Part shown: positions 766 through 30,697 of the stretch, piece by piece
Layout: every line of letters begins with the position of its first letter
How positions within the stretch are numbered: position 1 is the stretch's first letter
Assembly: GCA_027622665.1 (NCBI GenBank)
Contig: JAQBYT010000021.1
Span: 1-60,973 of the forward strand
DNA length: 60,973 nt
Source of the DNA: Verrucomicrobiota bacterium
GTDB lineage: Bacteria > Verrucomicrobiota > Verrucomicrobiia > Opitutales > Seribacteraceae
Reading direction: 5' to 3'
Notes under the pieces: generated by a model
The model's database searches: none
Seen by the model: the letters and a program-made list of their open reading frames with translations, nothing else
What the model was told of the DNA's origin: nothing
Made by a program: the position numbers and the translations under genes

Positions 766-818
766 TGGTTAGCTGTGATGCACCTCGTTAAATTGTAACA
801 CCTTAATTGAATGAAACC

Positions 819-9961: not shown

Positions 9962-10917
9962 ACCTTCCCTCGGTCGTCGGTTCCCTCGCCGAGTTGGGAG
10001 AACGGGAATCGAAACCGATTTGCTTAGCCATCGGCATGTTCGATGGGGTTCATCGTGGGCATCGAACAGTGCTCGAACTTGCCGTGGGTGAAGCCCGCTC
10101 TGTCAATGGACTGGCAGTTGCTCTCACCTTCCCTGAGCATCCTGCCAAGTTTCTAAGACCGGGGAAAGAGCCTCCTCTGCTTATGAATGCCGAGGCAAAG
10201 GCGAAGCTCCTACTCGATTGTGGGGCGGATTGCGTGGTGTTGAGGACCTTCGACGAGTCCTTTGCCGATGTCCCTTCGGAAGACTTTCTCGCTTACTTGA
10301 AGGAAAACCTTTCCTCTCTTCACTGTGTTTGCGTGGGAGAAAATTTCCATTTTGGTAAGGATAGAATTGGAGACGCCGATTATTTGCGAAAGAATGGCGA
10401 TCGGTATGGATTGAAGGTTTGCATCGCCGATGGCATTCTGGATGGCGACGAACCCATTAGCAGTTCCCGTATTCGTGAAGCCCTGTCTTCCGGCCGGATC
10501 AAAAAAGTCAACCGGATGCTCGGTTATTCGTACTCTGTTTTCGGAGAAATGGCAAAAGGCAGGGGCTTGGGTAGTGAAATAGGCTTTCCCACCCTCAACC
10601 TGCCATGGGTTCCCGAGGCTCGACCTGCTTACGGGGTCTATTTAGTCGAGGTCACCTGTCCGAATCCGTCCGGGCCTAAATACGCTGTGGCCAACTACGG
10701 TGTTCGTCCGACGGTCGAAGGGGTGGATGTTCAGCCGCTATTGGAAGTACACCTCCTCGGGGAAGAGGACTTTTCATCTTACAAGCCCGGTGACGAACTT
10801 TCTGTGGAACTGCATCGCTTTCTCCGCCCCGAACGCAAGTTCGATTCCCTCGATTCCCTGAAAACCCAAATTGCCGCAGACAAGATAGAAGCCGAAAAGC
10901 TTGTCCTCACGCTTTAG
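9958..10917 (+). CDS. ribF: Bifunctional riboflavin kinase/FAD synthetase
   Basis: [33 protein letters not shown]. Confidence 0.96.
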
Positions 10918-11397
10918 TACAAGGGGCGATGCAAGGTAACCCTTACCTTTGGGTTGAGCTTTCGCAAAGCCTGTATCTCGTCCGATATGTATAGCTTTTC
11001 CGGGGCCACAATGCATTGGCGACGGAGACCTGTCCTCCTCCCTTCTTTTGAACTTCCTTCAACCCCCAGTTTGAGGCCCGAGAACTCGGCGTGTAGTCGT
11101 TCGCGCCCCAGAGGCTCGCCTTCCTTGTAAGGGAACGAGGGGAACTCGAGAGCCTTGGCCATTTCGGTTTCGGTTTCGGTTTCTCCTCTTGCCCCGGCAT
11201 AAGTCATGGCGAGAGCGGTGGAGATGCTGTAGGGCGAAAGGAACAGGTTACCTTTCTCGTCGTTCAACTGGTCAATACAACTTGAGAGTGAACTGGGTGT
11301 TCCCTGCGACCATGGCTCCGACGTCGGCAATGGGCTTAGCTACGGTGGTGGTCGCGAAGACCACGAGGGTGAGCAGGATGCTGACAGAAGTTTTAAT
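10918..11397 (-). pseudogene. Serpin (serine protease inhibitor) pseudogene, N-terminal third only
   Basis: Reconstructed across frames: (ATT)KTSVSILLTLVVFA signal, GNTQFTLKLY / DQL..NLFLSPYSISTALAMTYAGARGET..EM / LKEVQKKG..VSVANALW; apparent ATG>ATT at 11397, frameshifts near 11275 and 11065, truncated at the ribF stop. Confidence 0.88.
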
Positions 11398-11419
11398 GGT
11401 TGATTGAGGGTTTCCCGGA

Positions 11420-14400
11420 TTATTGTGTGGGCGGTTTGGCCTCACGAATCATGGCCCCGGCTTCGTCGTTGAGGATGAGAACGGCGAAACGGTCGACGTC
11501 GTCGAGCTGGCCCGTGTTGAGAGAAACGTAGTCGAACTTTCCGCGCAGGTCCGTGTATCCGTCCTTGTAGAACTTGACTCTTCCGTCGTTCATCCGGGCG
11601 TAGACCTTGACGTAGGTGAAGGGCAAGGGTTTGGCGTTTTCTTCCCCGGTCACTCTAACTCTGCCGTAGCTTTCCGTAACCTCGACTCGCAGGCGGTTCG
11701 CGTAATAGGCCTTGGCCTTGCGGATGCCGCCCGCCTCGATCTCGATCATGACGTTGGCCTCGCGGTACTTCTCGGGCAAGGCGAAGACGTGGTTCTCGGC
11801 GTCGGGAAGCTTCACGCTCTGCGTCCCGTTGGGCAGGACGAATGTGAATTGCTCGGTGTCGTCGCTGACGAAGGGTCGTCGGGAAAACAGGAGTTCGACC
11901 TCCATCGGGTAGTAATTGATCCGGACGTCCTTCAGGTTGCGGTAGTTGATGGTTACTTCACCATTCACAACCTCGAAGTCGAAAGCCGGTTCGGTTGCCG
12001 CCAAGTCCTCGATCTTCTGTTCGCGGTTTTCTTCGTCGATTACCTTGGGCGCCGCACCTTGCTCGATCTCCTTCACCTGTCCGGTCACCGAGGCGAAACG
12101 TTTGCGCCAGCGTTCGACCGGGTAGTCCGCGTACTTGGCGGACAGTTTTTTCGCCTTTGCGACGTCGCCCTCGTAAAAGGCGACGTAGGAGGCGAGGTAG
12201 TCGTACTGGAGTTTCTCGTCTACGGCAACCGGGTCGACCTTGCCGAAGAACCCGATCCCCTCCTCCACGCGGTCCTGCAGGAACAGGTAGTAGGTGGCCC
12301 CCAACACGTCGTCCGCATCGGGCGAAGCCTTGTACTTCAGGATGTCGAGGAAGCGATGGTACTGCTCGTGGAAGCGGTTGTTCAGGATGTTGCGGGTCTT
12401 GCCGAGCCTGTGGGTCCGGGCGTTGACCAGTGGTTCGTACTCGAGTTGCTCGTACCAACGGCGCTCGACGGGGTCGACGTTCAGCAACGGACTCCGCAGG
12501 AACCTCCCGCATGCTCCAGCCAAGGCCGACTGGGAGAGGAATTCTCGCATGCGTGGCTCATCCTTGTGGTAGACGGCATAGGACCATAGGGTGGAATCGA
12601 AGTGAAAGCGTCCGGCGACCTGCTCTAGCACTTTCTCATAGAAGGCCCTTCCACTCCCACCTTCGGGGTTGGCCCGGAGGCGGAATGCGATCTTGCTCAA
12701 GTCGAGGCGGTTGAGGTTGTTGTCGGTCAAGTACTGGAGGACGTCCTTGCTCGATCCGTTTTGCGAAACCCAGGCCCATGCCCCCTTGTCCTTGCGTGTT
12801 AGGATATCCACGACGTTGAAGGCAAAAGGTTCAGCGCCGGCCACGGCCCCCTTGGGTCCTGACACTTGGGCCGGGTAGATGGGGAATTTTCCGGACTCGG
12901 GGAAGTAGAAGGCGTAGTCGAAAGTTCGCGTGGAATAGCCTTCCAGCGTGACGGGGAAACTCTTGGAGAAGTAGCCACGGTTCAGGGGGATGGCACCTGC
13001 GGGAATCTGCAGCAGTAGGCGTAGTTTACGCCGGGATGAGGTCGGGTTGGTCAAGGTGACGTGGCATCCGTGGGCGATGCCCTTCAGGAACTCCTCCCGT
13101 ACGAAATTGTCGACACGCTCGCCATTCTCGTAGCGGTAGCGTGAATCCAGTCGGTAGAAGCGCTGACTAAGCAGGACGTCGCGCGGACCCTTCGGGGCCT
13201 CGGTCTCAAGCAATTCCTCGTGAAACGCCACCAACGGACTTTCGGCCTCGAGGCGAAACTTGCGGTCCTCCGTATCGGTTTCGTGCTCCCCGGCCTCGAA
13301 CGGCAAATCCAGAACCGCCAAGGCGAGCAGCATCTCCGTGAAGTTGCGTGTGGCGTAGACCACGTTGCCCGAGAAGAAGGGCTTGCCGGGCTGGGCGGCG
13401 GCATAGTCGCGCCAGAAGGCGTTCACTTGCACGAGGGAGCCGTTCCGTTGCTCCTTGGGCACATGGTAGTAGTTGTTCTCGGCCCATTCTTGGGTCGCCT
13501 CAAGTTGGCGGAAGAACTGTCGCGCATTTCGCCTTTGCCCGGCTCCGGAGCGGAAGAATCCATAAGTGGCATTGTCTTTCTCGTCGACAATGCCTGCTGC
13601 GTTGTGCCACTCCCCATCGCTTCTATCCCCACTTGTTCGCATCTCTCCCTTGCTCTTTCTGCGTCCGTCCAGTTTCTCCATGGACTTGGATGAGGGTGAG
13701 AGCGTCATGGGTGGTGGCGCGGCTGGCGCGGCTATACCTCCACCTATGCCGCCCAAGCCAGGTTTTGCGCCATCCCTCGCCGCATTACTTCTGTAGGAGG
13801 AATCAGCCAAACCGTTCAACGCCAAACCTGACACCTCATCCCGGATTGCGAACCTTCCGAACGACACTTCCCTCTGTTGGAGCTTTATCTGCTCCATCTT
13901 CGCCAGTTCTCCTTCGCCGTCTCCCTTCAGGTCGGCGGTCTTGAGGGCGACCTCGAAAAGCCGGTCGAATTCCTCCGGGTTGGGCGGAATCAGTTCCCAC
14001 TTGTCCCGCACGTATCGGGCCATGGAGGCCGCCCCGGCGGGTCCCTTGCGGGCCAGCAGGATCTTTTCGAAGGCGTTCAGTTGGCCGAACCGAAAGGGAT
14101 CGAGGTGTTTCTTCAGGTCGTGCCCGAGGAACCAATCGTCGAGGAAGGTCGGTTCCTTCTTGTTGGCGAGGTAGGGCTTGACGACCCCGTTGAAGAATTT
14201 CGGATCCCTTCGCAAGAGGAAGAAATTCAGTTCGTGGCAGGCGTACTTGGAATACTTCTCCCGCTTTTCCTCCTCCTTCATGCCGGGCCAGTCGAGGATG
14301 AATTCGAACTCACGCAGGGTGGCGTTGTCGTTGAGGGTGAGCAACAGGTCGTGAATGTCGCGTAGGTCGTCGAGTACGCGCAAACGGGAGGTCGTCGCGT

Positions 14401-17400
14401 CGGCTAACTCGAAGGCCTTCCCCGCGTCCACGATCGTCATGCGCTTCTGCTCGGAATAGACCTTTTTCGGATCAAGGTCCGATACCATCCGCAGTTCACT
14501 CCGAACGACGGGTGCTTCGGGAAGGGCCATCACGGCGGAAGCCAACTGGACGGGGTCAGCCGCCACTATGCGAACCTGACGCAGTCCGGCTCCCTTGGGA
14601 AGGTCGACTTCTATAAAACCGTCCTCACCAACTTCGAGGTTGGCGGCCAGGAAGGTAGAGTTCTTGAGGAAATCGAGGCTGGCGAAATCAGCTAATCCTT
14701 CGGCTCCTCCGCCTCCGAAGGGGCCTCCCTCCGCCTTCTCTTCACTGGCGTTCCGCAAACGTTGGTAGTCACCGCCTTTTTGGGCGTCCTGCAAGGTGGT
14801 GCTGGTCTTGCGTAGGGACCACGGGTTGAGGATCAGCCCGGGGCGGGTGAGCATGTTGCCGGGAAACTTCTCGGCCTGTCGGCGCTCGAGCACGTAGCGG
14901 TATTCCTCGCCTATGTCGCGCTCGGCCACGTAGAGGGCCCGAGGGGCGCTCAGTTTCACCCAATAGGGGGAGGGGACGCCGCCGTGGTCGAGGGCGGCAT
15001 GGGCGTCGAAACGCGGAACGTACCGGGTGGCGAGAACGTGAACCCGGGCGAAGGCATGGGCGTTGGCCACCTTGGCCCTAAGCTTGCCGTCTTTAACCGT
15101 CAGGTCGGTGACCTGCAAGGGGGCGACCCGGTTGTCCTCGAGAATGCGGTTGGCGGAGGCGACGAAACCGAAGCGACGGTCGCCTGGGGTTACCCGTATT
15201 TGCACGGTCTCGCCCGTGTCCTTGAGGAAAAGCTCGTAGTCTCCGGGGGGAAGGTTGCTCAAGCTGAGGAAACCGTTGCGGTAGGAGGCTTGGTCGACGT
15301 GATCGGTCACGTAGAAGGCACCACGCCTCTCGAGAAGGGAGCACTTGGCTTCCTCCCGGCCCTCGGCCCACGAACCCGACACGGCCAGGCGAACGTCCTC
15401 GCCCGACGCAGCATGCAGGTGGGAAGGTTGCCCCACTTTGCCCTCGCGTTGGCCCGCGATCGTCCATCGGTAGACCTGACCATCGGCATTGCGAGCCGCA
15501 ATCCACTGTATGTCATTCAACTCCCCGAGTGTTATCTTTCCGGACTGGTCGCTTTTCAGGCTGATGCTGTGTGACTGGCGGAAGGCGGTGTGCTTGACCT
15601 CGAGGACTACGGGACGGTCGATGCGGGCTTCCCCGTTCTTTCCCAGGACATCCAGACTGTAGCCGTCCCGCGACCAACCGAGGTGGAGAGCGTCGACGAA
15701 ACCGCCTTGCTCAATCGCGTTGACGGAGAAGGTGGCGGAGTCCCGAAGGTCCTGCTTTTTGCCATGGCTGAGGTTCTCGACCTTCGCCTCGAGGACGACG
15801 GTCAGCTGAGAAAGCTTCTCGGGTACGGTGAATTCATGCAGGTAGTCCTCGCCTTCCTTGAGTTTGTCGATCGCTACTTCCGTGCGGTTCGGCGTTCCCT
15901 CGTAGTCGACCGCGAGCATGACTAGTTTGACCTCCTCCAGCGGATCCAGCGAAGCGGGACGGCCGTTGACCCGTAGGGATGGGCGAACGATTACCTGTGC
16001 CTTTTTTCGGCTCAACAAGGCTTCGCGGTCGACGTATAGTCCCGCCTGCAACTCGTAGCTCTCGCCGAGATGGTTGAAACGGGAAAGCGAGGAGAAGTCT
16101 CCGTCGCGCAGGATAACGGTCCTCTGGCCGGGACGATTGCTGAAAGGAACCGTCACAAGGCCATTCTTGGCCGGCTTGTGTTCCTTGCCGTCGAGCCAGA
16201 CGGTGGCCTTGGGACGCGCTTTGTTCGCCTCGTCGAGCACGCGGAATTCGTGACCCGCCGGACCAACCTTCTCCAGCAGGCGCAGGGCGCCTTTGCTAAC
16301 GAGGACCCGACTACTTATGCCGTTGCCGATGAACTCGACCACATAGACGCCACGTTTCTTGAGTTCGGGAAATGCGAAGGAGCGGGTGATCCGACGCATG
16401 GGCGCTTCCTTGAATTGGATGGTCCGTTCACGGGTGGCAGCGAGGCCGTCCAACTCGATACCCGTGTCGATCTCCTTGCCCTTGCGAAGGTAATAGTTGA
16501 AGGCATTGATCTCGAATTCCTTTACCAGAAGCGTCTCGATATTTTTGGTCCAGAGGGAAATCTTCACTTCTTCACCTGGGGCGAAGCGTTCCTTGTTGGA
16601 GTAGGCGAAGTCGAGGTCTACGCGATCCTTGATGGTCTTCACCTCACCCGAGTTCAGCATCGAGTACCATTTCTCGGGATTGCCAAGTCCCGCCGTCAGC
16701 TTAGCCTCGGCGAAGACCCTCTTGAGGTAGTCATCGCGCACGTATTTCACGAAACCGTCGTAATCCTTGTCCTGAAGAAAGAAATGAAGGAGATGGGAGC
16801 GGACAAGGGAATCGTCGTTGCCGATTAGAGGAAATCCGCCGCGTGAACTGTAGTCGGCGTTGAGGTCGACCCGGCAATCGCCCCGGCGCTTGATTTCCGC
16901 ATCTCGCCAGACGGGGTTTACGTAGTTGGTATAGCGTGGCAACTTGAGGTACTCGAGGAACAGTTCGCGATCCCAAACACCCTGCTTCCGCTTGAAGGCA
17001 AGCAGGTGGTGCAGAACATTCGCCTTGAGGGTGTTGAAGGCGGGAGACAAACCGCGTGTGAAGCTGAGCTGGCGGTTTAGCCACTTGCTCATCTCCGCAT
17101 CGTCCTGACGGGGGTCGACATCAGCGGAGGGCGCCAGTTTCGGGAGGTAGGCATGGACGAAGTTGGCATTGTCGATGAACTTACGGTCAATCTGTAGCAA
17201 CCCTTCCATTTGCGCCTGCGTGAGGTTGCGGTGGATGGTGTGGGAGCCGAAACCTTTGTTGTACTTGCTTTTCAGGTCCTTGACGATGAGTGCGGGCAGG
17301 TTGGGGACGTCGGGACGTATCAGGCGACTGAGGAAGTGCTGCAACCGGATGTCGTTCAGTTCGTCGAGGTCGAGAAGAGTGAGTCCCTTATCCTCTATGC

Positions 17401-17866
17401 CTTGCAGGTCCTTGTGCCGGGCGAGGGCCTGCTGGAGATAGACTACGAAACTGATCCTTTGTGGATCCAGCTTGGTCGGGTGGTTGGGCTTGCGACCCTC
17501 GACGACGCGACTGTGGTTGAACAGCAGGTTGAGCTCGCGCTTGACGTGGGCCAAGGTCGCCTCGGGGTTTTCCCCGTAGCGGAGCATGGCCGAACGATTT
17601 TCGATTTCCTTTGTTTGCAGGGTGTGCCCGTACCGCTTGACCCAGATCTTCATGAGGCGCTCGACTTCCTGGTGGTCTCCCTTGCTCAGGGCGTGCAGGG
17701 AGGAGTAATAATAGTATTCCTGCGTGCCGGAGACCAGTTCCTTGAGGGCTTCCTCGCGGTCTTCGGCTAGGCTGAATCTTTCCACGAACCCGATCTCGCG
17801 GGCGGTGAGGCAGGTCCCGGCAAAAATGATTCCGAGGGCGAAGGTGGTGACGTTGCGAATATTCAT
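11420..17866 (-). CDS. Giant secreted protein (2148 aa), paralogue A, alpha-2-macroglobulin-like features
   Basis: Uninterrupted ORF with strong GC3 bias; Sec-type signal; colinear full-length similarity to the 17906-24346 product; function is inference. Confidence 0.9.
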   Translation of the reverse strand: MNIRNVTTFALGIIFAGTCLTAREIGFVERFSLAEDREEALKELVSGTQEYYYYSSLHALSKGDHQEVERLMKIWVKRYGHTLQTKEIENRSAMLRYGENPEATLAHVKRELNLLFNHSRVVEGRKPNHPTKLDPQRISFVVYLQQALARHKDLQGIEDKGLTLLDLDELNDIRLQHFLSRLIRPDVPNLPALIVKDLKSKYNKGFGSHTIHRNLTQAQMEGLLQIDRKFIDNANFVHAYLPKLAPSADVDPRQDDAEMSKWLNRQLSFTRGLSPAFNTLKANVLHHLLAFKRKQGVWDRELFLEYLKLPRYTNYVNPVWRDAEIKRRGDCRVDLNADYSSRGGFPLIGNDDSLVRSHLLHFFLQDKDYDGFVKYVRDDYLKRVFAEAKLTAGLGNPEKWYSMLNSGEVKTIKDRVDLDFAYSNKERFAPGEEVKISLWTKNIETLLVKEFEINAFNYYLRKGKEIDTGIELDGLAATRERTIQFKEAPMRRITRSFAFPELKKRGVYVVEFIGNGISSRVLVSKGALRLLEKVGPAGHEFRVLDEANKARPKATVWLDGKEHKPAKNGLVTVPFSNRPGQRTVILRDGDFSSLSRFNHLGESYELQAGLYVDREALLSRKKAQVIVRPSLRVNGRPASLDPLEEVKLVMLAVDYEGTPNRTEVAIDKLKEGEDYLHEFTVPEKLSQLTVVLEAKVENLSHGKKQDLRDSATFSVNAIEQGGFVDALHLGWSRDGYSLDVLGKNGEARIDRPVVLEVKHTAFRQSHSISLKSDQSGKITLGELNDIQWIAARNADGQVYRWTIAGQREGKVGQPSHLHAASGEDVRLAVSGSWAEGREEAKCSLLERRGAFYVTDHVDQASYRNGFLSLSNLPPGDYELFLKDTGETVQIRVTPGDRRFGFVASANRILEDNRVAPLQVTDLTVKDGKLRAKVANAHAFARVHVLATRYVPRFDAHAALDHGGVPSPYWVKLSAPRALYVAERDIGEEYRYVLERRQAEKFPGNMLTRPGLILNPWSLRKTSTTLQDAQKGGDYQRLRNASEEKAEGGPFGGGGAEGLADFASLDFLKNSTFLAANLEVGEDGFIEVDLPKGAGLRQVRIVAADPVQLASAVMALPEAPVVRSELRMVSDLDPKKVYSEQKRMTIVDAGKAFELADATTSRLRVLDDLRDIHDLLLTLNDNATLREFEFILDWPGMKEEEKREKYSKYACHELNFFLLRRDPKFFNGVVKPYLANKKEPTFLDDWFLGHDLKKHLDPFRFGQLNAFEKILLARKGPAGAASMARYVRDKWELIPPNPEEFDRLFEVALKTADLKGDGEGELAKMEQIKLQQREVSFGRFAIRDEVSGLALNGLADSSYRSNAARDGAKPGLGGIGGGIAAPAAPPPMTLSPSSKSMEKLDGRRKSKGEMRTSGDRSDGEWHNAAGIVDEKDNATYGFFRSGAGQRRNARQFFRQLEATQEWAENNYYHVPKEQRNGSLVQVNAFWRDYAAAQPGKPFFSGNVVYATRNFTEMLLALAVLDLPFEAGEHETDTEDRKFRLEAESPLVAFHEELLETEAPKGPRDVLLSQRFYRLDSRYRYENGERVDNFVREEFLKGIAHGCHVTLTNPTSSRRKLRLLLQIPAGAIPLNRGYFSKSFPVTLEGYSTRTFDYAFYFPESGKFPIYPAQVSGPKGAVAGAEPFAFNVVDILTRKDKGAWAWVSQNGSSKDVLQYLTDNNLNRLDLSKIAFRLRANPEGGSGRAFYEKVLEQVAGRFHFDSTLWSYAVYHKDEPRMREFLSQSALAGACGRFLRSPLLNVDPVERRWYEQLEYEPLVNARTHRLGKTRNILNNRFHEQYHRFLDILKYKASPDADDVLGATYYLFLQDRVEEGIGFFGKVDPVAVDEKLQYDYLASYVAFYEGDVAKAKKLSAKYADYPVERWRKRFASVTGQVKEIEQGAAPKVIDEENREQKIEDLAATEPAFDFEVVNGEVTINYRNLKDVRINYYPMEVELLFSRRPFVSDDTEQFTFVLPNGTQSVKLPDAENHVFALPEKYREANVMIEIEAGGIRKAKAYYANRLRVEVTESYGRVRVTGEENAKPLPFTYVKVYARMNDGRVKFYKDGYTDLRGKFDYVSLNTGQLDDVDRFAVLILNDEAGAMIREAKPPTQ

Positions 17867-17905
17867 GGCTTCAAAACTCCGTTTTATGGTAAAGGTTTCC
17901 GGTGG

Positions 17906-20900
17906 TCACTGCGTGGGTGGTTTGGCCTCGCGTATGGCGGCCCCGTGACGGTCGTGCAGGACGAGGATCGAGAAGTCCCGAGCGTCGTCAAGATCGCCCG
18001 TGTTGAGCGAGGCGTAGTCGAAACGTCCGCGCAGGTCTGTGTAGCCGTCCTTGTAGAAGCGCGCTTGGCCGTTGCCTAGCTTGGCGTAGACCTTGACGTA
18101 TGTCTCGGGCAGGGGCTTGCCCGTGTCGGAGTGGGTCACGCGCACCTGCCCGTAGTTCTCGATGATTTGTACGGCCAAGTCGTTCGCGTAGTAGGCCTTG
18201 GCTTCGCGGATGCCCGCGGCAACCACCTCCACCATGACGTTGCGGTCCGCGAACTCGTCTGGCAACGGGAAGGAATGACCGTCCTTCCCTTTCGGCAGGT
18301 CGATCTCCCGGCTCAGGTTGGGTACGATGCTGGTGAAGTGCTCGGTGTCCTCCTTCACGAAGGGCTTTCTGGAGAAGAGTAGTTCCACGTCCATCGGGTA
18401 GAAGTTGACGGTGCAGGACTCGAGGTTGCGGGCCCGGATGGTGACCTCCCCTTTCTCGACCTCCAGTTCGAGGCCGGGTTCAGTGGAGGCGAGGGCGTCC
18501 TGAACCTGTTCGCGGTCCTCATCGTCCACGGGCTTGACGCCCTTGCCGTCGATCTCGTCGAGTTGACCTAGTGCCTCGCGGAACAGGTTCCTCCAGCGGT
18601 CGACCGGGTAGTCCGCGTATTTCGCGGCCCGTCGGCGAGCCGACGCGAGGTCGCCCTTGTAGAAGTCGACGTAGGTGGAGAGGTACTCGTGCTGGAGTTT
18701 CTCCGCCACGTTTTCGGGCTGGACGCGTCCGAATAACTTCAGTCCCTCGTTCACACGGTCCTGCAAAAATAGGTAATAGGAAACGGCGAGCAGATCCTCA
18801 TCTTCCAGAATCGGGTGGTACTTCAGGACGTTCATGTACCGGTGGTACTGCCCATGCAATCGATCGTTGAGGACTTTGCGATCCTTCCCCAGTCTGTGGG
18901 CCCGGGCATTGACCAGAGGCTTGTACTCGAGGTGCTGGTGAAAATTGCGTTGCACGGGATTGATGGTCAGGAGTGGGCTGTTCAGGTACAGGCCGCAACG
19001 ACTCGTTATGCCGGAACGCGACAGGTATTCACCCATCCACTTCGCATCCTTGTGGTACAAGGCGTAGGACCAGAGTGTGGAATTGTAGGACAAACGATCC
19101 GAGAGAAGCTTCAGGGCCTTCTCGAAAAAGGCTTTCCCTCCGCCACCCTCGCGGTCATGGCGCATGCGGTAGGCAATCTTGTCGAGGTCGATCCGGTTCA
19201 TGTTGTGGTCGCGGAGGTATTGCAGCACTTCCTTCTCGGTGCCGTTCTGGGAGATCCAAGCCCATGAGGTCATGTCCCGCTTGCTCAGCTTGTCGACCAC
19301 CTTGAAGACGAATGCGGCGGCTCCCGCCACCCGACCCTTGTCGTTCGCCACTTGGATGGGGTAGATCGGGTATTCGCCGGTTTCGGGGAAGTAGAAATAG
19401 AAGTCGTGGGTCTGGGTGGAGTAGGGCTCTAGCCGGAAGGGTCGCCCGTTCGAGTAGAAACCGTTCTGCAGGGGAATGGCTCCCGCGGGAATTTGGGTCA
19501 GGTAACGGAGCTTGCGGACCGAGGAGGTCGGGTTGGTGATAACCACTTGGCAACCGTAGGCGATCTGCTTGAGGAACTCGTCCTTGACGAAGTTGTCCAG
19601 CCGTTCTCCTCGCTCGTGGCGGAAACGGGAATCCGCTCGGTAGAAGTTCTGGCTCAAGAGGATGTCGCGGGCGTCCTCGGCGTCCTCGGTTTCACGGATT
19701 TCCTGATGGAACACCACCAGTGGCTTGTCCGACTTGAGGGCGAAGGTGCGTCCCTCGTTCTCCACTTCGTGATCGGCCGCGTCGAAAGGCAGGTCGAGGA
19801 CCGCCAGGGCGAGCATCATCTCGGCGAAGTTGCGCGTGGCGTGGATGAAGTTGCCCGAGAGGAAGGGCTTTCCTTCGGGATTGGCCGCGTAGTCGTTCCA
19901 GAAGGCGTTGACCAGGATGAGGTCGGCGTTCTGGCGCTCGATCGGCAACTTGTAGTAGTTGTTCTCGGCCCATTCCTCCGTGGGAGGGAGCTTTCGGTAG
20001 AATTGACGGGCCTTGCCCCTTTCCTTCAAGTCTGCCGACAGGTAGCCGGCCTCGCCATCTTTCTTTTTTTCACCTGTCCATGCACTCTTGTCCCGTGAAC
20101 GCTTGGCCTGGATCAACATGTCGTTATCTATGTCCTCCAAAGCCTCGGAAAGATATCGTGATTCCGCCTGCTCAGCATACGCTTTCTCGGCTTCCGCTAG
20201 CTCGAAAATGGGCAGAGGTCCCGATGCGGCTGTTGCCTGCGGTTTAGAGGCGACTTTTCCCGCAAAACCCCCCGAGAAGTTGGAGGCGAGTGAATCGACA
20301 ATCCTATTCTCCACTGGCGCCGATTGCTTCTTCAGGCTCTCGACTAGGCGCCTGTTCTGGGACGATTGTTGTTCACGCAAGCCGAGTTTGTCGCCGGTCT
20401 CCAGCGCCGAACTTCCGACCGCCGCGTCGAAGAGGCGGTTGTACTCCTCGGGATTAGGCGGGATCATGTCGTGCAGTTCGCGGACGTAGCGCTCCATCGC
20501 CTTGGCTCCACCGGGCCCCCTGCGGGCCATGAGGATTTTCTCCACCGCGTTGAGCCGCGAAAAGGCGAAGGGCTCGAGATAGCGTGACAAATCCGCCTCC
20601 AGCAACCAGTGGTCCATGAAGGTCTTGTCCTTCTTGTTGGCGAGGTAGGGCTTGATGACCTTCCCGAAGAACGCGGGATCCTTGTGGAGAAGGAAGAAAT
20701 TCAGTTCGTGGCAGGAGTACGCTGAGTATTTCTCGCGCTTTTCCTCGGGCTTGAGACTCGGCCAGTCCAAGATGAAGCCGAACTCGGCGAGGTTGGCGTC
20801 GCCATTGAGGGTCGAGAGCAGCCCGTAAACCCGGGACAAGGTGTCGTAAAGCTGGATTTCGGAGGTGGTGACGTCGGCTAACTTGAATTCCTTGCCCTTG

Positions 20901-23900
20901 GCTAGCGTGGATATGAGCTTTTGCTCAGAGAAGGGCTTCTTGGGGTCGAGCGTGCGAGCCATGCGCAGTTCCTTCCGCTCCAGCTTGGCGGCAGGCAGGG
21001 CGACCGGACGGTAGGCCACGTTCCACGAGTCGATGGCGTAAACATGAAGACGCTGGTGGCCCGAGAGGCCTTCCAGATCGATGACGGCGACGCCGTTCTC
21101 GTCGGGTTTCACATTCGCCCAGAGTAAACCGTTGGTCTGGAGGAAGTCCAAGTTGGCATAGTCGGTCGCCGAACCTGCCCCCGAAGAGCGACCCTGGCCC
21201 GCCTTTTTCGAATCTTTAGCCAAATCCATTTTCTTAGCATATTCTCCACCCTTGGCGGCGGCCTGTCTGCCGGTGTCGGTTTTGCGGACCGACCACGGGT
21301 TGAGAATCAGGCCGGGGCGCTTGAGCATGTTTCCCGGATATTTTGGTGCGTACCTGCGATCCAGCACGTAGCGGTATTCCTCTCCGATCTGGCGCTCCTT
21401 CACATAGAGGGAGCGCTGCTTGGTCAAGCGCATCGAGTAGGGCGACGGGATACCGCCCACGTCGATGGCGGCGAACCCGTCCCAATGCGGGACGTAGCGT
21501 GTGGCGTAGACATGCAACCTAGTAAGCTTGTCGGCGTTCCCGAGGCGAACCGTCGCCTTGCCGCCCTCGATGGCGACCGAGCGAATCTGGACGGGATCGA
21601 GCCGGTTGTCCTCAAGGACACGGTTGCCTGATAAGACGAAACCGTGTCCACGTTTTCCCTCCGTCACTCGGATGGTGATCTTCTGGCGGGTGTTCTTGAG
21701 GAATAATTCGTAGTCACCCGGGCCGAGTCCGCGAACGAGAAGAAATCCGCCACGGAGGGAACCCGCCGCCGAATGATCTCTCTCGTAGAAGGAACCTCGC
21801 TTCGAGAGGAGGGAATAGACAGAGGTGTTGTCCGTGTTGTCCGAGACTCCCGGCACGACGACCGCGATGACTTCATCGACCGCGGCATGAATGGACGTCG
21901 GCTGGGCGTTGCGCCCTACTTGGTCGCGGTGAATGGGCCACATGTAGCTTGAGCCATCCGGGTGACGAATACGAATCCACTCGATGCGTGGCATCTTTCC
22001 TAGTCCGATGCGGCCATTCTGGTCCGTCTTCAGACCCAATGTGCGGGTACTGACGAAATCGAGGTGCTTGACTTCTGCGGTCACGGCCCTGTCGACCATG
22101 GACTCCCCGTTTCGACCAAGAACGTCCAAATAGTAATCTCCCTTCAGTTGGCCAAGGTGGACGGCTTCCATCTTGAGGGTGCGTTCCACTTGGTTCACGG
22201 TGAAGGAACGATTGCGAGAGAAGCTTTCCTTTGTCGCGCGGCTAAGGTTCTGTACTTTTCCCGTGAGGATTAGACTGATAGTCGACAATTTATCCGGTAC
22301 AAGAAACTCGTGAATGAAATCTTTCCCTTGTTCGAGCTTCGGCAAATCCATTTCTGTCATGCTCGGGACGCCGTCATGGTCAACCGACTGCACGACGAGT
22401 TTTGCATCCTCCAGCAGTTCGGAAGAAACCGGATAGCCGTTCAGGCGAAGGAGCGGACGGATGACGGCCTTGGCGGTGGTTCCCTTGACGAGGGTCTCCC
22501 GGTCGATGTGGATGCCGGCGTCGAGTTTGTAGTTCTCGCCGAGATGATCAAAGGTGGTCAGAGCGCAGAATTCGCCATCCCGAAGGACTATGCTTCGGCG
22601 ACCGGGACGGTTGCTGAACGGAACCCTCAGGATACCGTGTTTGTCCGTGGAATATTCGGTGCCTTCCAGCCAGATGTCGGTCTTCGGCCGATTCTTGTTG
22701 TTTTCGTCGACTATCCTGAACTCGTGGCCGGCCGGACCAACTTTCTCGAGAACCCGCAGGTTGCCCTTCGTGACGAGGGCCCGACTGCTCTTCCCGTTCC
22801 CGATGAACTCGATGACGTAGACCCCGCGCTTGTTCAGTTCGGGGAAATCGAACTCTCTCTCGGCTCGCAGCATGGGAGCATCCTTGTACTTGAGGACCCG
22901 CTCCCAGGTCGCCGACAGACCGTCCAGGTTGATCGCAGTGTCGACAGGTTTCAGGTTTCGGCTGTAGAAGTTGAAGGTGTTGATCTCAAAGGCCTTTACC
23001 AGGAGCGTGTCGACGTTCTTGACGGCGAGCTTGAGCTTCACTGGTTCAGTTGACTTGAAGAACTCCTTGTTGTCGGCGGGGAAATCGAGATCGATTCGGT
23101 TCTTGAGGGCGTTGACCGCCACCGAGGACAGCATGGAGTACCACTTCTCGGGGTCGCCGACGCCCGCCGTCAGCTTGGCCTCCGCAAACAACGGTTTCAA
23201 GTAGTCGTCCCGCACGAGCTTCGCAAAAGCCTCGTAGTCCTTGTCCTTGACGAAGAACTTGAGGAAAAAGGACCGCACGAGTTCCAGATCGTTGCTGATT
23301 CTGCTCAATCCCGTGTAGGCACTGTAGTCGGCGTTCAGGTTTACCTCGATTCGCCGATCCTTGCGCAACGCTTCCTCCCAGCGCTTTGGGTGGACGTAGA
23401 TTCCTCCGCGCGGAAGTGAAAGGTACTCCAGAAACAACTGGCGATTCCACTCACCCTGTGAACGCTGGAAGGAAAGCATGTGGTAGATGGCGTTTGCCTT
23501 GAGTGAGTTGTGGGCAGGAGCCAAACGCTTGGAGAAATTGTAGATGCGATTGAGATGCTTCCGCTTCTCCTCGTAGTCGTAGGTCACGTCGACGTCGTCG
23601 GACGGCGCCATTTTCGAGAGGTAGACATTGATGAAATTCGAGTTGTCGATCAGATTTGGCTCCAACTGGAGCAGTTCGTCCAGTTGAGGCAGGGTCAAGT
23701 TGCGGTGGATACCGTGGGAACCGAATCCACGACTGAACTTGGCCCTGAGATCCTTCACGACGAAGGCGGGCAGATCGGGAACGTCCGGCCTTTGCAGGCG
23801 ACTCAAGAAATGCCGGAGGCGATCCGGGTTGAGTGCCCCGTACTTGAGGTTCTCGAGACCACGATCTGAAACGCCTTGTAGGTTTTTATACTGGAGAAAC

Positions 23901-24346
23901 GCCTGCCCAAGGAAGGTGTCGTAGCTAATGGCAACGGGGTCGATGTTTGTGGGATGGAGTGGTTTTTGGCCCTCGACGAAGCGACTGTGGTTGAAATTCA
24001 GCCCCAATTCGTTCCTCAGGTGGGTGATGGTTCCGTTCGGGTTCTGCTCGAAATCCAGCAAGGCTTGCCGATTGCGGACTTCCTGTACACGCGATGTGTG
24101 TCCGTGCCGCTTGATCCACAACCCGAGGATACGATTGAGTTCCTGCTGGTCGCCAAGATTCTGGGCGTGCAGGGCATGGTAGTAATAGTAATCGCGCGTT
24201 CCGGGAATCAACTCCTTGAGGGCTTCGGCTCGATCTTCGGCAATGGCGAACTTCTCGACATAGCCAATTGAGTTGGCGCCAAGGTTCCCGAAGATCAGGC
24301 AAGCCATTGTGAAGGAGAAGGAAACAGGAGTCATTCTGATTTTCAT
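17906..24346 (-). CDS. Giant secreted protein (2146 aa), paralogue B, alpha-2-macroglobulin-like features
   Basis: Uninterrupted ORF; signal peptide; shares N-terminal IG(F/Y)VE.F..AEDR.EALKEL and C-terminal YVKVYA..FYKDGYTDLRG.FDY..IREAKPPTQ with paralogue A. Confidence 0.9.
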   Translation of the reverse strand: MKIRMTPVSFSFTMACLIFGNLGANSIGYVEKFAIAEDRAEALKELIPGTRDYYYYHALHAQNLGDQQELNRILGLWIKRHGHTSRVQEVRNRQALLDFEQNPNGTITHLRNELGLNFNHSRFVEGQKPLHPTNIDPVAISYDTFLGQAFLQYKNLQGVSDRGLENLKYGALNPDRLRHFLSRLQRPDVPDLPAFVVKDLRAKFSRGFGSHGIHRNLTLPQLDELLQLEPNLIDNSNFINVYLSKMAPSDDVDVTYDYEEKRKHLNRIYNFSKRLAPAHNSLKANAIYHMLSFQRSQGEWNRQLFLEYLSLPRGGIYVHPKRWEEALRKDRRIEVNLNADYSAYTGLSRISNDLELVRSFFLKFFVKDKDYEAFAKLVRDDYLKPLFAEAKLTAGVGDPEKWYSMLSSVAVNALKNRIDLDFPADNKEFFKSTEPVKLKLAVKNVDTLLVKAFEINTFNFYSRNLKPVDTAINLDGLSATWERVLKYKDAPMLRAEREFDFPELNKRGVYVIEFIGNGKSSRALVTKGNLRVLEKVGPAGHEFRIVDENNKNRPKTDIWLEGTEYSTDKHGILRVPFSNRPGRRSIVLRDGEFCALTTFDHLGENYKLDAGIHIDRETLVKGTTAKAVIRPLLRLNGYPVSSELLEDAKLVVQSVDHDGVPSMTEMDLPKLEQGKDFIHEFLVPDKLSTISLILTGKVQNLSRATKESFSRNRSFTVNQVERTLKMEAVHLGQLKGDYYLDVLGRNGESMVDRAVTAEVKHLDFVSTRTLGLKTDQNGRIGLGKMPRIEWIRIRHPDGSSYMWPIHRDQVGRNAQPTSIHAAVDEVIAVVVPGVSDNTDNTSVYSLLSKRGSFYERDHSAAGSLRGGFLLVRGLGPGDYELFLKNTRQKITIRVTEGKRGHGFVLSGNRVLEDNRLDPVQIRSVAIEGGKATVRLGNADKLTRLHVYATRYVPHWDGFAAIDVGGIPSPYSMRLTKQRSLYVKERQIGEEYRYVLDRRYAPKYPGNMLKRPGLILNPWSVRKTDTGRQAAAKGGEYAKKMDLAKDSKKAGQGRSSGAGSATDYANLDFLQTNGLLWANVKPDENGVAVIDLEGLSGHQRLHVYAIDSWNVAYRPVALPAAKLERKELRMARTLDPKKPFSEQKLISTLAKGKEFKLADVTTSEIQLYDTLSRVYGLLSTLNGDANLAEFGFILDWPSLKPEEKREKYSAYSCHELNFFLLHKDPAFFGKVIKPYLANKKDKTFMDHWLLEADLSRYLEPFAFSRLNAVEKILMARRGPGGAKAMERYVRELHDMIPPNPEEYNRLFDAAVGSSALETGDKLGLREQQSSQNRRLVESLKKQSAPVENRIVDSLASNFSGGFAGKVASKPQATAASGPLPIFELAEAEKAYAEQAESRYLSEALEDIDNDMLIQAKRSRDKSAWTGEKKKDGEAGYLSADLKERGKARQFYRKLPPTEEWAENNYYKLPIERQNADLILVNAFWNDYAANPEGKPFLSGNFIHATRNFAEMMLALAVLDLPFDAADHEVENEGRTFALKSDKPLVVFHQEIRETEDAEDARDILLSQNFYRADSRFRHERGERLDNFVKDEFLKQIAYGCQVVITNPTSSVRKLRYLTQIPAGAIPLQNGFYSNGRPFRLEPYSTQTHDFYFYFPETGEYPIYPIQVANDKGRVAGAAAFVFKVVDKLSKRDMTSWAWISQNGTEKEVLQYLRDHNMNRIDLDKIAYRMRHDREGGGGKAFFEKALKLLSDRLSYNSTLWSYALYHKDAKWMGEYLSRSGITSRCGLYLNSPLLTINPVQRNFHQHLEYKPLVNARAHRLGKDRKVLNDRLHGQYHRYMNVLKYHPILEDEDLLAVSYYLFLQDRVNEGLKLFGRVQPENVAEKLQHEYLSTYVDFYKGDLASARRRAAKYADYPVDRWRNLFREALGQLDEIDGKGVKPVDDEDREQVQDALASTEPGLELEVEKGEVTIRARNLESCTVNFYPMDVELLFSRKPFVKEDTEHFTSIVPNLSREIDLPKGKDGHSFPLPDEFADRNVMVEVVAAGIREAKAYYANDLAVQIIENYGQVRVTHSDTGKPLPETYVKVYAKLGNGQARFYKDGYTDLRGRFDYASLNTGDLDDARDFSILVLHDRHGAAIREAKPPTQ

Positions 24347-27022: not shown

Positions 27023-28446
27023 GTGCGTTGAAGCGATTCAAGCATGGCGGCAAGCTTGAGGTCGGTTTCCAGCTTTTCGCTAACGGGATCGGAACCTTTT
27101 ACAATTCCTGATCCCGCGTACAAAGCGACTTGTTTGTCGTTAAGGTGACCGCAGCGAAGGGGCACTACGAATTCACCTTCTCCCTCATGGTCGAACCATC
27201 CCGCAACGCCACTGTACCAATCTCTCGAAAATCCTTCGAGCTCTCTCAGGTGCGGCAAGGCTAATTCGCGAGGACTTCCCCCTATGGCCGGAGTGGGGTG
27301 AAGTTCCGCAAGAATGTCGAGGGGATGAAGATTCTTTGACAAGCTCGCTCGAAGGGGGGTTCGTACGTGTTGGAGGTTTGATAAGCGGAGAAGGCGCGGG
27401 CGACCTTCTTCACAATGCTTTAGGCCGAGTGCTTGCAGGCGACGTATAATGGATTCGACGACCAATCGGTGTTCGCGTCCTTCCTTTTCACTATCGAGAA
27501 GAGCTTGGCCCAATTGAGCGTCGGTTCCTGCGTTACCACCTCTGGCGGTGGTGCCGGCAAGTGCTTCCGTTTCGATTCGATCGCCTTCTATGCGCAGGAG
27601 GTTTTCGGGAGTCGCTCCTACCAGCATGCCCGGTCGACGGTCACCGAGGCAAAAAGTGTGGCAGTCCGGAAAACGTTCGCGGAGTTGGTGTGCGAGGGCA
27701 AAAGGAGATAGAGAGCGATCCGAGTCGAAAGTGATTTTGCGCGACAACACGATTTTGTCGAAGCTTTCCGCATCAAGGAGGTCAAGGGCTTTGGCCACGA
27801 TCTCCTCGTAGTCGTTTTGTTCTCGATGTGGCGATAGAATGGGCGGGGGGAGTTGAACGAAGTTGGGAATTTCGGTTTGGTTGCGAAAGTGTGCTAGTTT
27901 TGCGTGCGCGGCCCAAATGCCTTGTGCCATCTCATGAAGGTTGGAGTCTGGTTCAATCTTTGCATTCGCAATTGCATAGTGCCGACCGCCTTTCCGAAGT
28001 ACTTGCCAGCGGGGCATGAACACGGCGAGCGGTGCGGGGTGACCCTCGTTCACGTCATTGTTTTCTTCAAAGGTTGCGGCGAGAGCGAACATGGGGCCGG
28101 CACCGCCGGACGCTAGGTCGCCCGTGGCAATGGTTCGGGAAAATACTTCGGCGGCGAAGCCACGGGCCTCGGAAAAACGAGCGTGACCCGAAAATTCTTG
28201 GTATGCGACTGCTTCTCCACACGATAGCGCGAATTCCTCCGATGGGCGCTCGACGTACCACAAGGGCTTTCCCTCCTCACTGATCGCCTCGAGGATAGCA
28301 AGTGGGTCGATGAAATTAGTTTCGACCGTGATGGAACCGAAATATGGAGAATCTTTTCTTCGGGCTTCACTTTTGCAACGCTCCAAAAATGCGACAAGTG
28401 CCGCTTCATCGCGTGAGGGAAAGTTTTCGACGGGGATGATGCGCAC
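27019..28446 (-). CDS. menF: Isochorismate synthase
   Basis: KIVLSR, GATPE, ALAGT, LHPTPAIGG, YAGSGIV; overlaps the menD start. Confidence 0.92.
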   Translation of the reverse strand: MRIIPVENFPSRDEAALVAFLERCKSEARRKDSPYFGSITVETNFIDPLAILEAISEEGKPLWYVERPSEEFALSCGEAVAYQEFSGHARFSEARGFAAEVFSRTIATGDLASGGAGPMFALAATFEENNDVNEGHPAPLAVFMPRWQVLRKGGRHYAIANAKIEPDSNLHEMAQGIWAAHAKLAHFRNQTEIPNFVQLPPPILSPHREQNDYEEIVAKALDLLDAESFDKIVLSRKITFDSDRSLSPFALAHQLRERFPDCHTFCLGDRRPGMLVGATPENLLRIEGDRIETEALAGTTARGGNAGTDAQLGQALLDSEKEGREHRLVVESIIRRLQALGLKHCEEGRPRLLRLSNLQHVRTPLRASLSKNLHPLDILAELHPTPAIGGSPRELALPHLRELEGFSRDWYSGVAGWFDHEGEGEFVVPLRCGHLNDKQVALYAGSGIVKGSDPVSEKLETDLKLAAMLESLQRT

Positions 28447-28449
28447 GGG

Positions 28450-28767
28450 TCAATTGTTCTTTTGGGACCGGCGATCCTCATCATCGCTGATGACTGGGTC
28501 ATAACCACCCGAGTGAAGAGGGTTGCATTTGGCTATTCGACGGATGCTTTTCCAGAGAGCCATAGGGAGAGGGAATCGTCGTAGGCATTCCAGTGTATAG
28601 GCCGAGCAGGTGGGCGCAAAGCGGCAACCTGCCGTCGGTCCGAGCAAATATTTTTTGAAAGGCGAGAAAAAACGATAGACATGCACGAGAATCACGATAG
28701 GAAACGCGACAATTGCGTTGGCAATGTGGAGGAGTGATCGTTTCGGCGTGAGCCGGTTCTCAGCCAT
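28450..28767 (-). CDS. yidD: Membrane protein insertion efficiency factor
   Basis: CRFAPTCSAY and RIAKCNP..GGYDPV. Confidence 0.92.
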   Translation of the reverse strand: MAENRLTPKRSLLHIANAIVAFPIVILVHVYRFFSPFKKYLLGPTAGCRFAPTCSAYTLECLRRFPLPMALWKSIRRIAKCNPLHSGGYDPVISDDEDRRSQKNN

Positions 28768-30610: not shown

Positions 30611-30697
30611 TGTTACTAGCGGTTTTTGAGGGTCGAGTAATTAATGCAGGCGGGCCAATACCGGCAACGCCAAAGGAAATACCTCCTTGCTCTCCCT

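Follow-up and report, generated by a model that had tools for sequence, protein, structure and literature searches.

Tandem CAGE-family genes in a verrucomicrobial genome: likely alpha-2-macroglobulin ancestry and a possible role in protease defence

CAGE is a hollow protein complex of Tetrahymena (CAGE1-3) and Dictyostelium (AbpF), solved by cryo-electron microscopy as a homotetramer of 1 MDa with D2 symmetry and dimensions of ~22 x 16 x 12 nm, and its function is unassigned (10.1101/2025.09.22.677704 = PMC12485934; PDB 11KS/11KT, EMD-75779/75780). In the parts of this preprint available to us, to which our statements on it refer unless a table or a whole-text search is named, the cavity measures 600 nm3 and has slit-like openings, the family extends to the PVC bacteria and Desulfobacterales, and bacterial members bear signal peptides. 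The preprint reports single-domain hits resembling alpha-2-macroglobulin (A2M) in domains 4-6, with YfaS_2nd, A2M_N_2 and MG4 listed in its Table S1, yet calls the fold novel. A2M is the second described system of interest here, and the human protein is a four-subunit hollow cage able to isolate proteases physically (PMC12939704, in the part available). We analyzed two adjacent genes, A and B, in a contig of 60,973 nucleotides from a Verrucomicrobiota bacterium (JAQBYT010000021.1, hereafter the window), and compared their products, relatives and gene neighbors with both systems.

Membership of genes A and B in the CAGE family

Gene A (P0001; 17906-24346) and gene B (P0002; 11420-17866) lie on the minus strand, as do all features described within and directly after them, and encode 2146 and 2148 amino acids (aa), respectively. 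They are separated by 39 bp, and the two proteins have the same layout and 52% identity over 2150 aligned residues, end to end. This confirms the original prediction, made from the letters of the window alone, of two co-oriented, colinear genes for proteins of ~2150 aa. The two deep paralogs are the only full CAGE copies in the host genome, which is 93.5% complete.

The search with full-length A returned 1,946 homologs among 7,999 candidates scored, and a profile of the C-terminal half matched 2,087 clusters at E <= 1e-30. The best 120 homologs are 43-55% identical to A, carry no Pfam domain and come from Verrucomicrobiota, Planctomycetota and Desulfobacterales, with Opitutia/Verrucomicrobiota as the closest named relatives. 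Six of the seven accession-bearing homologs that we looked up (WP_207681440.1, MDM8525676.1, NQU24829.1, MBL63421.1, MEC8928494.1 and MCP4107944.1) occur in Table S2 of the preprint, its table of members; the seventh, MHC4404176.1, is not in it. The checked homologs span 97-100% of the length of A and are 46-55% identical to it, plus one from a cluster with a 72%-identical representative. It is through these Table S2 homologs, which show 28-31% identity to eukaryotic CAGE at 86-93% cover, and not by direct alignment, that A is tied to the eukaryotic complex; entries 11KS/11KT were not among the matches of our PDB search. In both AlphaFold models of A (residues 25-1150, pLDDT 84.7; residues 1000-2146, pLDDT 72.4) the secondary structure follows, at matching positions, the 15-domain order of CAGE: helical domains 1-2, beta domains 3-8 (8 being split), a split domain 10 enclosing helical domain 11, beta domain 12, helical domains 13-14 and beta domain 15 (PMC12485934).

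The placement of A and B in the CAGE family is therefore secure, though indirect. The bacterial proteins and the described complex have in common the sequence family, a length of ~2,100 aa, the helical/beta domain order, the signal peptide and the spread over PVC bacteria and Desulfobacterales; the preprint purified eukaryotic particles, whereas A and B are known here from their genes. The original prediction had called the family undescribed, which Table S2 contradicts: A and B are additional members of a family already described. The cage architecture that it proposed holds by way of this membership. Some homologs have longer frames, of 2,370-2,570 aa (G082:C8, G110:C246, P0265, P0270; here and below, letter-number labels are our own), which suggests that they hold extra domains.

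Both proteins are predicted to be exported. By a hydropathy heuristic, each begins with a hydrophobic leader, which in A is a predicted Sec signal peptide (aa 1-24; 24275-24346), and neither has a lipobox or a membrane segment beyond the leader. Among 205 leader-bearing homologs, 200 have the hydrophobic core and ten a lipobox pattern.

Relationship to alpha-2-macroglobulin

Neither A nor B matched a Pfam family at E <= 0.1, the single NCBIfam match (on B, E 0.23) was at chance level, and the PDB sequence search with A gave no significant hit; Pfam, NCBIfam and PDB searches with A, B or their profiles gave nothing significant, and the ESM Atlas returned only leads below 0.9, to MG2/A2M clusters. 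A fold search of 48,161 chains placed five members of the A2M/TEP superfamily at the top (Z 14.6-11.0), ahead of the next unrelated chain at Z 8.6. For the N-terminal half of A, nearly every match that Foldseek lists is to A2M, complement, TEP or CD109 (E ~1e-11, TM only ~0.1).

The order in A is signal peptide, helices, NIE, MG1 to MG6a, loop 1, MG6b, an insertion with loop 2, MG7, helices with TPR-like repeats, and a second NIE-MG1 module; domain names follow the available parts of PMC12939704 and PMC4498604 and PDB titles. The ~400-aa helical N-terminus that had been predicted corresponds to an all-helical region in the model (aa 25-415; 23102-24274) that resembles TPR folds only weakly (Z at most 8.6). 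A run of beta-sandwiches follows (aa 416-1121; 20984-23101), colinear with bacterial A2M from NIE and MG1 to the split MG6. It aligns with Salmonella A2M 156-1011 (Z 14.4, 372 residues aligned, root mean square deviation (rmsd) 12.5) and, also in order, with E. coli A2M 166-1019, from NIE through the second half of MG6. Between MG6b and MG7 lies a CAGE-specific insertion (aa 1126-1553; 19688-20971), composed of a small split beta domain and an inserted helical domain. The MG7-like domain (aa 1554-1686; 19289-19687) matches MG7 of C3/C4 with Z 10.7 and rmsd 2.6 over 103 residues, and that of C3 with Z ~10 and rmsd 2.4-3.1 over ~105, as compared to Z 8.7-9.1 for MG8. Where A2M has CUB-TED-MG8, A has a helical region (aa 1690-1945; 18512-19279) ending in TPR-like repeats (fold at 1847-1951). 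The last module (aa 1950-2142; 17921-18499) matches E. coli NIE-MG1 (Z 13.5, rmsd 3.0 over 179) and is likely an internal duplication; together with the repeats, it accounts for the C-terminal TPR-like plus beta module of the original prediction. CUB, TED and MG8 are not listed as fold matches of the 1,147-residue C-terminal model, where degenerate versions may nevertheless be present. As had been proposed, MG sandwiches are thus found in A2M order, but they superpose badly over the whole run (rmsd 12-13 A, Foldseek TM ~0.1), so that the ring geometry either differs or is mispredicted.

Profile-profile comparison of a 236-row CAGE alignment with a 52-row bacterial A2M alignment (pairwise E-values) matched CAGE 432-688/784 to NIE-MG1-MG2(-MG3) with E 1e-9 to 8e-9 and CAGE 1966-2112 to NIE-MG1 with E 2e-8 to 3e-6, while reversed profiles gave E 0.065 or worse in all 30 controls. 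MG7 was matched with E 1.6e-4 and 3.8e-3. The post-bait MG6b match is at the expected place, weak (E 0.03-0.05) and second-best with one template, and no match was found by profile to CUB, TED or MG8 (E 0.09-0.43). The diverse A2M profile was required: one of low diversity reached E 8e-5 only, and the CAGE hidden Markov model gave no significant match to 120 close A2M sequences (best E 0.02). The internal NIE-MG1 repeat matched itself directly with E 8e-4 only, and the N-terminal helices of CAGE had no profile match to the helical N-terminus of A2M or to the C-terminal helices of CAGE. Of the motifs quoted by the original prediction, DFLQTNGLLWAN...RLHVYA belongs to A and all others to B. LYVDRE, assigned to an MG domain, matches the start of MG2, and DFLQTNGLLWAN...RLHVYA (DFLQ...RLHVYA), likened to the segment after the bait, falls at the weakly matched MG6b position. 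The domain of YFPESGKFPIYP, which had been attributed to the last MG domain, matches MG7 better (E 1.6e-4) than the last MG domain (E 0.15).

The thioester motif CxEQ is absent from A and B by motif scan. It occurs in four of the 236 CAGE sequences, at four unrelated positions, as opposed to 112 of 119 A2M sequences. The genes at the A-B locus are fpg, a serpin remnant and ribF, and pbpC is absent among the neighbors that were annotated or sized; the prediction of no CxEQ, lipobox or pbpC neighbor is therefore correct. Compared with bacterial A2M (E. coli ECAM/YfhM 4ziq, 4zjh; Salmonella 4u48; the ~2,000-aa type with helical N-terminus; PF01835/PF00207/PF17973), A and B share the NIE-MG1-MG2 order, what appears to be a split MG6 whose flexible loop takes the place of the bait, MG7 and export. 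They differ in lacking CxEQ, lipobox, pbpC neighbor and matched CUB, TED and MG8, in the ~430-aa insertion, in the C-terminal TPR-like helices with a second NIE-MG1 and, probably, in a ring smaller by one MG domain. The MG scaffold of A is also that of human tetrameric A2M (7o7p, 7von) and C3/C4/C5/TEP/CD109 (Z 11-12.6), whereas the CAGE cage is larger, has another shape and contains no thioester domain. Profiles and models together indicate that A and B likely descend from bacterial A2M, minus the thioester. The macroglobulin interpretation of the original prediction was largely right and goes beyond the preprint.

In 300 genomes of the phylum, A2M is found in 19 of 27 genomes with CAGE and in 134 of 273 others; these counts are confounded by kinship and genome size but do show that A2M is not replaced by CAGE. 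The host genome itself encodes two canonical CxEQ A2Ms (G000:C24:945-7007 and 28080-33488; L104, L105; CSEQ and CVEQ): one belongs to the ~2,000-aa type with helical N-terminus, and the other measures ~1,790 aa.

Two low-confidence segments of A could play the part of baits. Loop 1 (aa 1026-1062; 21161-21271) is rich in Gly, Ala and Lys and by structural alignment occupies the slot of the A2M bait region, next to the weakly matched MG6b. Loop 2 (aa 1325-1440; 20027-20374) is hypervariable, CAGE-specific and a candidate second bait. The loops of B (loop 1, aa 1024-1061, 14684-14797; loop 2, aa 1323-1442, 13541-13900) are 26% and 5% identical to those of A, respectively. Across homologs, loop 1 measures 37-45 aa and loop 2 56-132 aa, and loop 2 is 45% identical between orthologs that are 92-98% identical elsewhere. 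Both loops are rich in Ala, Gly, Glu, Lys and Arg, like the A2M bait, with which their composition correlates at r 0.92-0.93 (bait and folded parts, r 0.49-0.64). Over five ortholog pairs, the fifth being saturated in both loops, the ratio of nonsynonymous to synonymous substitution rates (dN/dS) is 0.08-0.12 in folded parts, 0.08-0.53 in loop 1 and 0.44-1.11 in loop 2 (for A alone, 0.8-1.1 in loop 2 against 0.08-0.11 in the remainder); A and B as a whole are under purifying selection (dN/dS ~0.1). These data allow a bait function.

CAGE is conserved across phyla (45% identity) and has invariant C-terminal motifs. Among the most conserved motifs are NPWxxRxT, TxEWAENNYY and LEYxPLVNAR (aa 1017-1024, 1456-1461 and 1806-1809 of A), which match the small three-part domain 9 of the preprint by position, not by coordinates. 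Since two of the three border loops 1 and 2, both loops may leave one small sheet.

Protease inhibitor genes next to CAGE

As predicted, a serpin remnant starts at 11397, 22 bp after the stop of B (10973-11397; Pfam Serpin E 5e-11). It corresponds to the 5' third of a serpin only: the Pfam match covers profile positions 13-70 of 370, and there is no full open frame of ~370 aa. When compared to the intact allele L031, the remnant starts with ATT instead of ATG, carries insertions of +1, +6 and +1 near 11274, 11162 and 11067, and has lost ~1.93 kb, comprising the remainder of the serpin and the larger part of the leucine-rich-repeat (LRR) gene that follows. Through the deletion, the opening ~135 codons of the serpin run straight into the final ~20 of the LRR gene (10914-10984), at a junction of short homology (10973-10984). 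The serpin of the window is a deletion-fusion pseudogene, and the original idea of a working operon of three genes fails on this point. In sequencing run X10, which is not flagged as a source of the assembly, a 517-base contig matches 10904-11420 without gaps, so the deletion is not an assembly error. Other X10 contigs diverge at 10985 and 11065, as expected of the undeleted allele, and a contig of run X15 is free of two of the insertions. Deleted and apparently intact serpin-LRR alleles thus seem to coexist in one seawater sample (X10).

Among 61 genomes of the same family, eight have a serpin match (PF00079), which in seven directly follows a CAGE gene (G003, G004, G005, G009, G011, G013 and the host, G000); the eighth, in G001, is cut by the contig end and lies beside the same LRR-ribF genes. 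In six relatives the serpin is intact and adjacent to CAGE; it encodes a protein of 412-436 aa that has a leader peptide and the hinge AAAATAVV, and the gene follows whichever CAGE copy is last. Because these genomes are kin, we counted them as one event. In relatives the serpin is followed by an LRR gene for ~370-390 aa with a leader peptide (L108:16505-17671, L031:9408-10571, L023:13256-14374, L106:3480-4598, L111:2971-4089), which might belong to the unit as its fourth gene.

A second inhibitor, ecotin (PF03974), is matched in 12 of 80 CAGE-bearing genomes searched and in 11 of 301 genomes of the phylum, with no match in the host genome. In one family (f46), whose CAGEs form a distant branch of the CAGE tree, it directly follows CAGE in four of five CAGE genomes from two genera (G119, G154, G316, G354), starting ~20-180 bases past the CAGE stop and in the same orientation, although the surrounding genes vary. 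The 1.5-kb flanks of ecotin contain no CAGE in the remaining eight ecotin genomes. In two distant CAGE branches, therefore, the next gene encodes a serine-protease inhibitor, and the two inhibitors are structurally unrelated. Assuming ~60 distinct downstream contexts and no more than one such gene in a few thousand, a rough post hoc estimate predicts ~0.01-0.02 such pairings by chance. A role of CAGE in protease defence is likely because a serpin adjoins in this lineage and ecotin in another. At the level of whole genomes, serpins are found in 17 of 27 CAGE genomes and 62 of 273 others of the 300 phylum genomes, which we did not use as evidence since kinship and genome size confound such co-occurrence. 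One genome, G381, has a small inhibitor cluster without CAGE, in which a serpin-like open frame directly precedes an ecotin match (L158:1-2055); its CAGE gene is elsewhere.

The original prediction of a link to protease inhibitors thus stands as adjacency in two lineages and fails as a family-wide serpin operon, since most CAGE loci are without an inhibitor neighbor and otherwise sit beside unrelated housekeeping or unknown genes. A serpin is found in two of 80 GTDB loci (46 of them with at least 1.5 kb downstream), both in relatives of this lineage. None of the 17 phylum genomes with CAGE and serpin has the two on one contig, and in genus g5 CAGE occurs in 15 of 29 genomes and a serpin in 0 of 29. 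These counts weigh against the protease trap considered below.

Possible functions of the cage

We tentatively propose, at a little less than an even chance, that A and B are exported, thioester-free A2M derivatives that form a preformed cage and act through their loops as a non-covalent protease trap or decoy. Four copies of A, or of B, would assemble into a hollow cage of ~1 MDa, a D2 homotetramer with slit-like openings by analogy with the eukaryotic structures. A foreign protease would cut loop 1, in the bait slot, and/or loop 2, and would then be retained within the cage or by it, out of reach of large envelope substrates, in a physical 'Venus-flytrap' mode resembling that of tetrameric A2M. 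With their loops almost fully diverged, A and B might widen the range of proteases answered, and the serpin would once have been a co-transcribed second inhibitor. It is accessory to CAGE, as it is destroyed here and absent at this place in several relatives. In favor of a trap, the partners reported to be cross-linked within the Tetrahymena cage include an aminopeptidase (PMC12485934). Extending the proposal to the whole family, CAGE could be an unrecognized thioester-free branch of the A2M/complement superfamily, with the CUB-TED-MG8 arm replaced by a duplicated helical and NIE-MG1 module and a second fast-evolving bait, and could serve both bacteria and microbial eukaryotes as a preformed protease trap of megadalton size; this wider claim we think possible, but probably mistaken.

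Several observations speak against a trap. A2M trapping needs a moving TED/CUB/C-terminal MG arm (PMC4498604, in the part available), which has no match in CAGE, so that the closing motion is unexplained. The available sections of the preprint describe a cavity free of substrate density, and eukaryotic members without signal peptides that contact actin, IFT proteins and Asf1 (PMC12485934). The serpin is dead in the host, yet A and B remain under purifying selection, and two canonical A2Ms are already present. The loops themselves are ambiguous: loop 1 is fairly constrained and its MG6b flank weakly matched, the dN/dS of loop 2 could reflect relaxed constraint just as well as selection, and a bait-like composition is common to disordered linkers.

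Since the closing arm is unmatched, eukaryotic members are not secreted and the host has canonical A2Ms, two other explanations stay serious rivals. CAGE could be an ATP-independent holdase or container whose clients are exported proteins, either unfolded or fragile, with inhibitors adjoining through a common role in envelope protein quality control. This is the first suggestion of the preprint itself (PMC12485934), human A2M is also chaperone-like (PMC9352918, in the part available), and a holdase would suit cytosolic eukaryotic members with varied partners, the missing thioester and the mostly inhibitor-free neighborhoods; we nevertheless rate it unlikely, since in the loci examined it is two unrelated inhibitors, and no gene for a chaperone or protease, that are found repeatedly next to CAGE, and the retained bait-slot loop and fast-changing loop 2 are left unexplained. 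Alternatively, the cage might house or deliver its own cargo, such as a secreted hydrolase or peptidase that the serpin or ecotin restrains, or be a structural envelope particle. The open cavity with an aminopeptidase cross-linked inside fits a cargo, and the conservation across phyla and the invariant C-terminal motifs suggest fixed partners or interfaces; set against the absence of a conserved cargo gene in the 80 GTDB or the phylum loci and a cavity that is empty in cryo-electron microscopy (PMC12485934), we find this quite improbable.

The remaining alternatives concern the subunits. An obligate heteromeric cage of A and B, forming a three-part system with the serpin, would agree with purifying selection on both genes and with the tandem A-B order kept in G003, G004, G005, G049, G051 and G057. 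In a tree of 35 rows (FastTree, midpoint root), however, A and B fall into separate, fully supported clades, each with stand-alone members in other genomes (A-type in G009, G013, G015 and L022; B-like in G012, L037 and L047), and the three Tetrahymena paralogs are reported with self cross-links only (PMC12485934), both of which argue for separate homotetramers. With the serpin dead in the host as well, the heterodimer of the original prediction is unlikely, and the full three-part system has a very small chance of being right. A 4,055-aa A-B 'fusion' in G049 (L110:4357-16521) spans runs of N and was rejected as a scaffold-gap artifact, which leaves the heteromer without that support. That A and B are ordinary bacterial A2Ms of the YfhM/YfaS type, trapping proteases covalently, is next to inconceivable: the NIE-MG7 scaffold is in common, but the rarity and scatter of CxEQ in CAGE refute it at the motif level, and the A2M Pfam match is missing, the insertion is extra and the C-terminal third is different. 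An independent CAGE tandem pair, whose copies are each other's closest relatives, occurs in a planctomycete (L087:10001-22965).

A whole-text term search of the main text of the CAGE preprint finds no 'serpin', 'thioester' or 'operon', and most of that text holds nothing on tandem paralogs or inhibitor neighbors (PMC12485934). An A2M domain map of CAGE and its pairing with inhibitors were not found in the literature, with subscription journals thinly covered, and among the papers listed for AbpF and for ecotin, serpin and macroglobulin none on CAGE function turned up. For a newly solved, widespread megadalton cage, the locus offers a specific and testable idea, in which the cutting of a loop leads to the holding of a protease. 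The serpin and ecotin pairings, if truly independent, would be the first functional clue for the family, and the domain-by-domain link, if true, would extend the A2M/complement superfamily to ciliates, amoebae, fungi and green algae. Even if the trap fails, A2M ancestry constrains what the cage can be.

Scans for promoters and terminators yielded no more matches than shuffled sequence did, and a search for repeats turned up none that was informative. The sequencing runs that contain the window are aquatic, estuary and marine metagenomes. In two RNA libraries, contigs span 27-28 of 30 bins; as they cover the flanks too, they do not demonstrate expression or co-transcription. Near the contig start, in a stretch of lower GC (44%), the window encodes a further leucine-rich-repeat protein of 622 aa (807-2675, plus strand).

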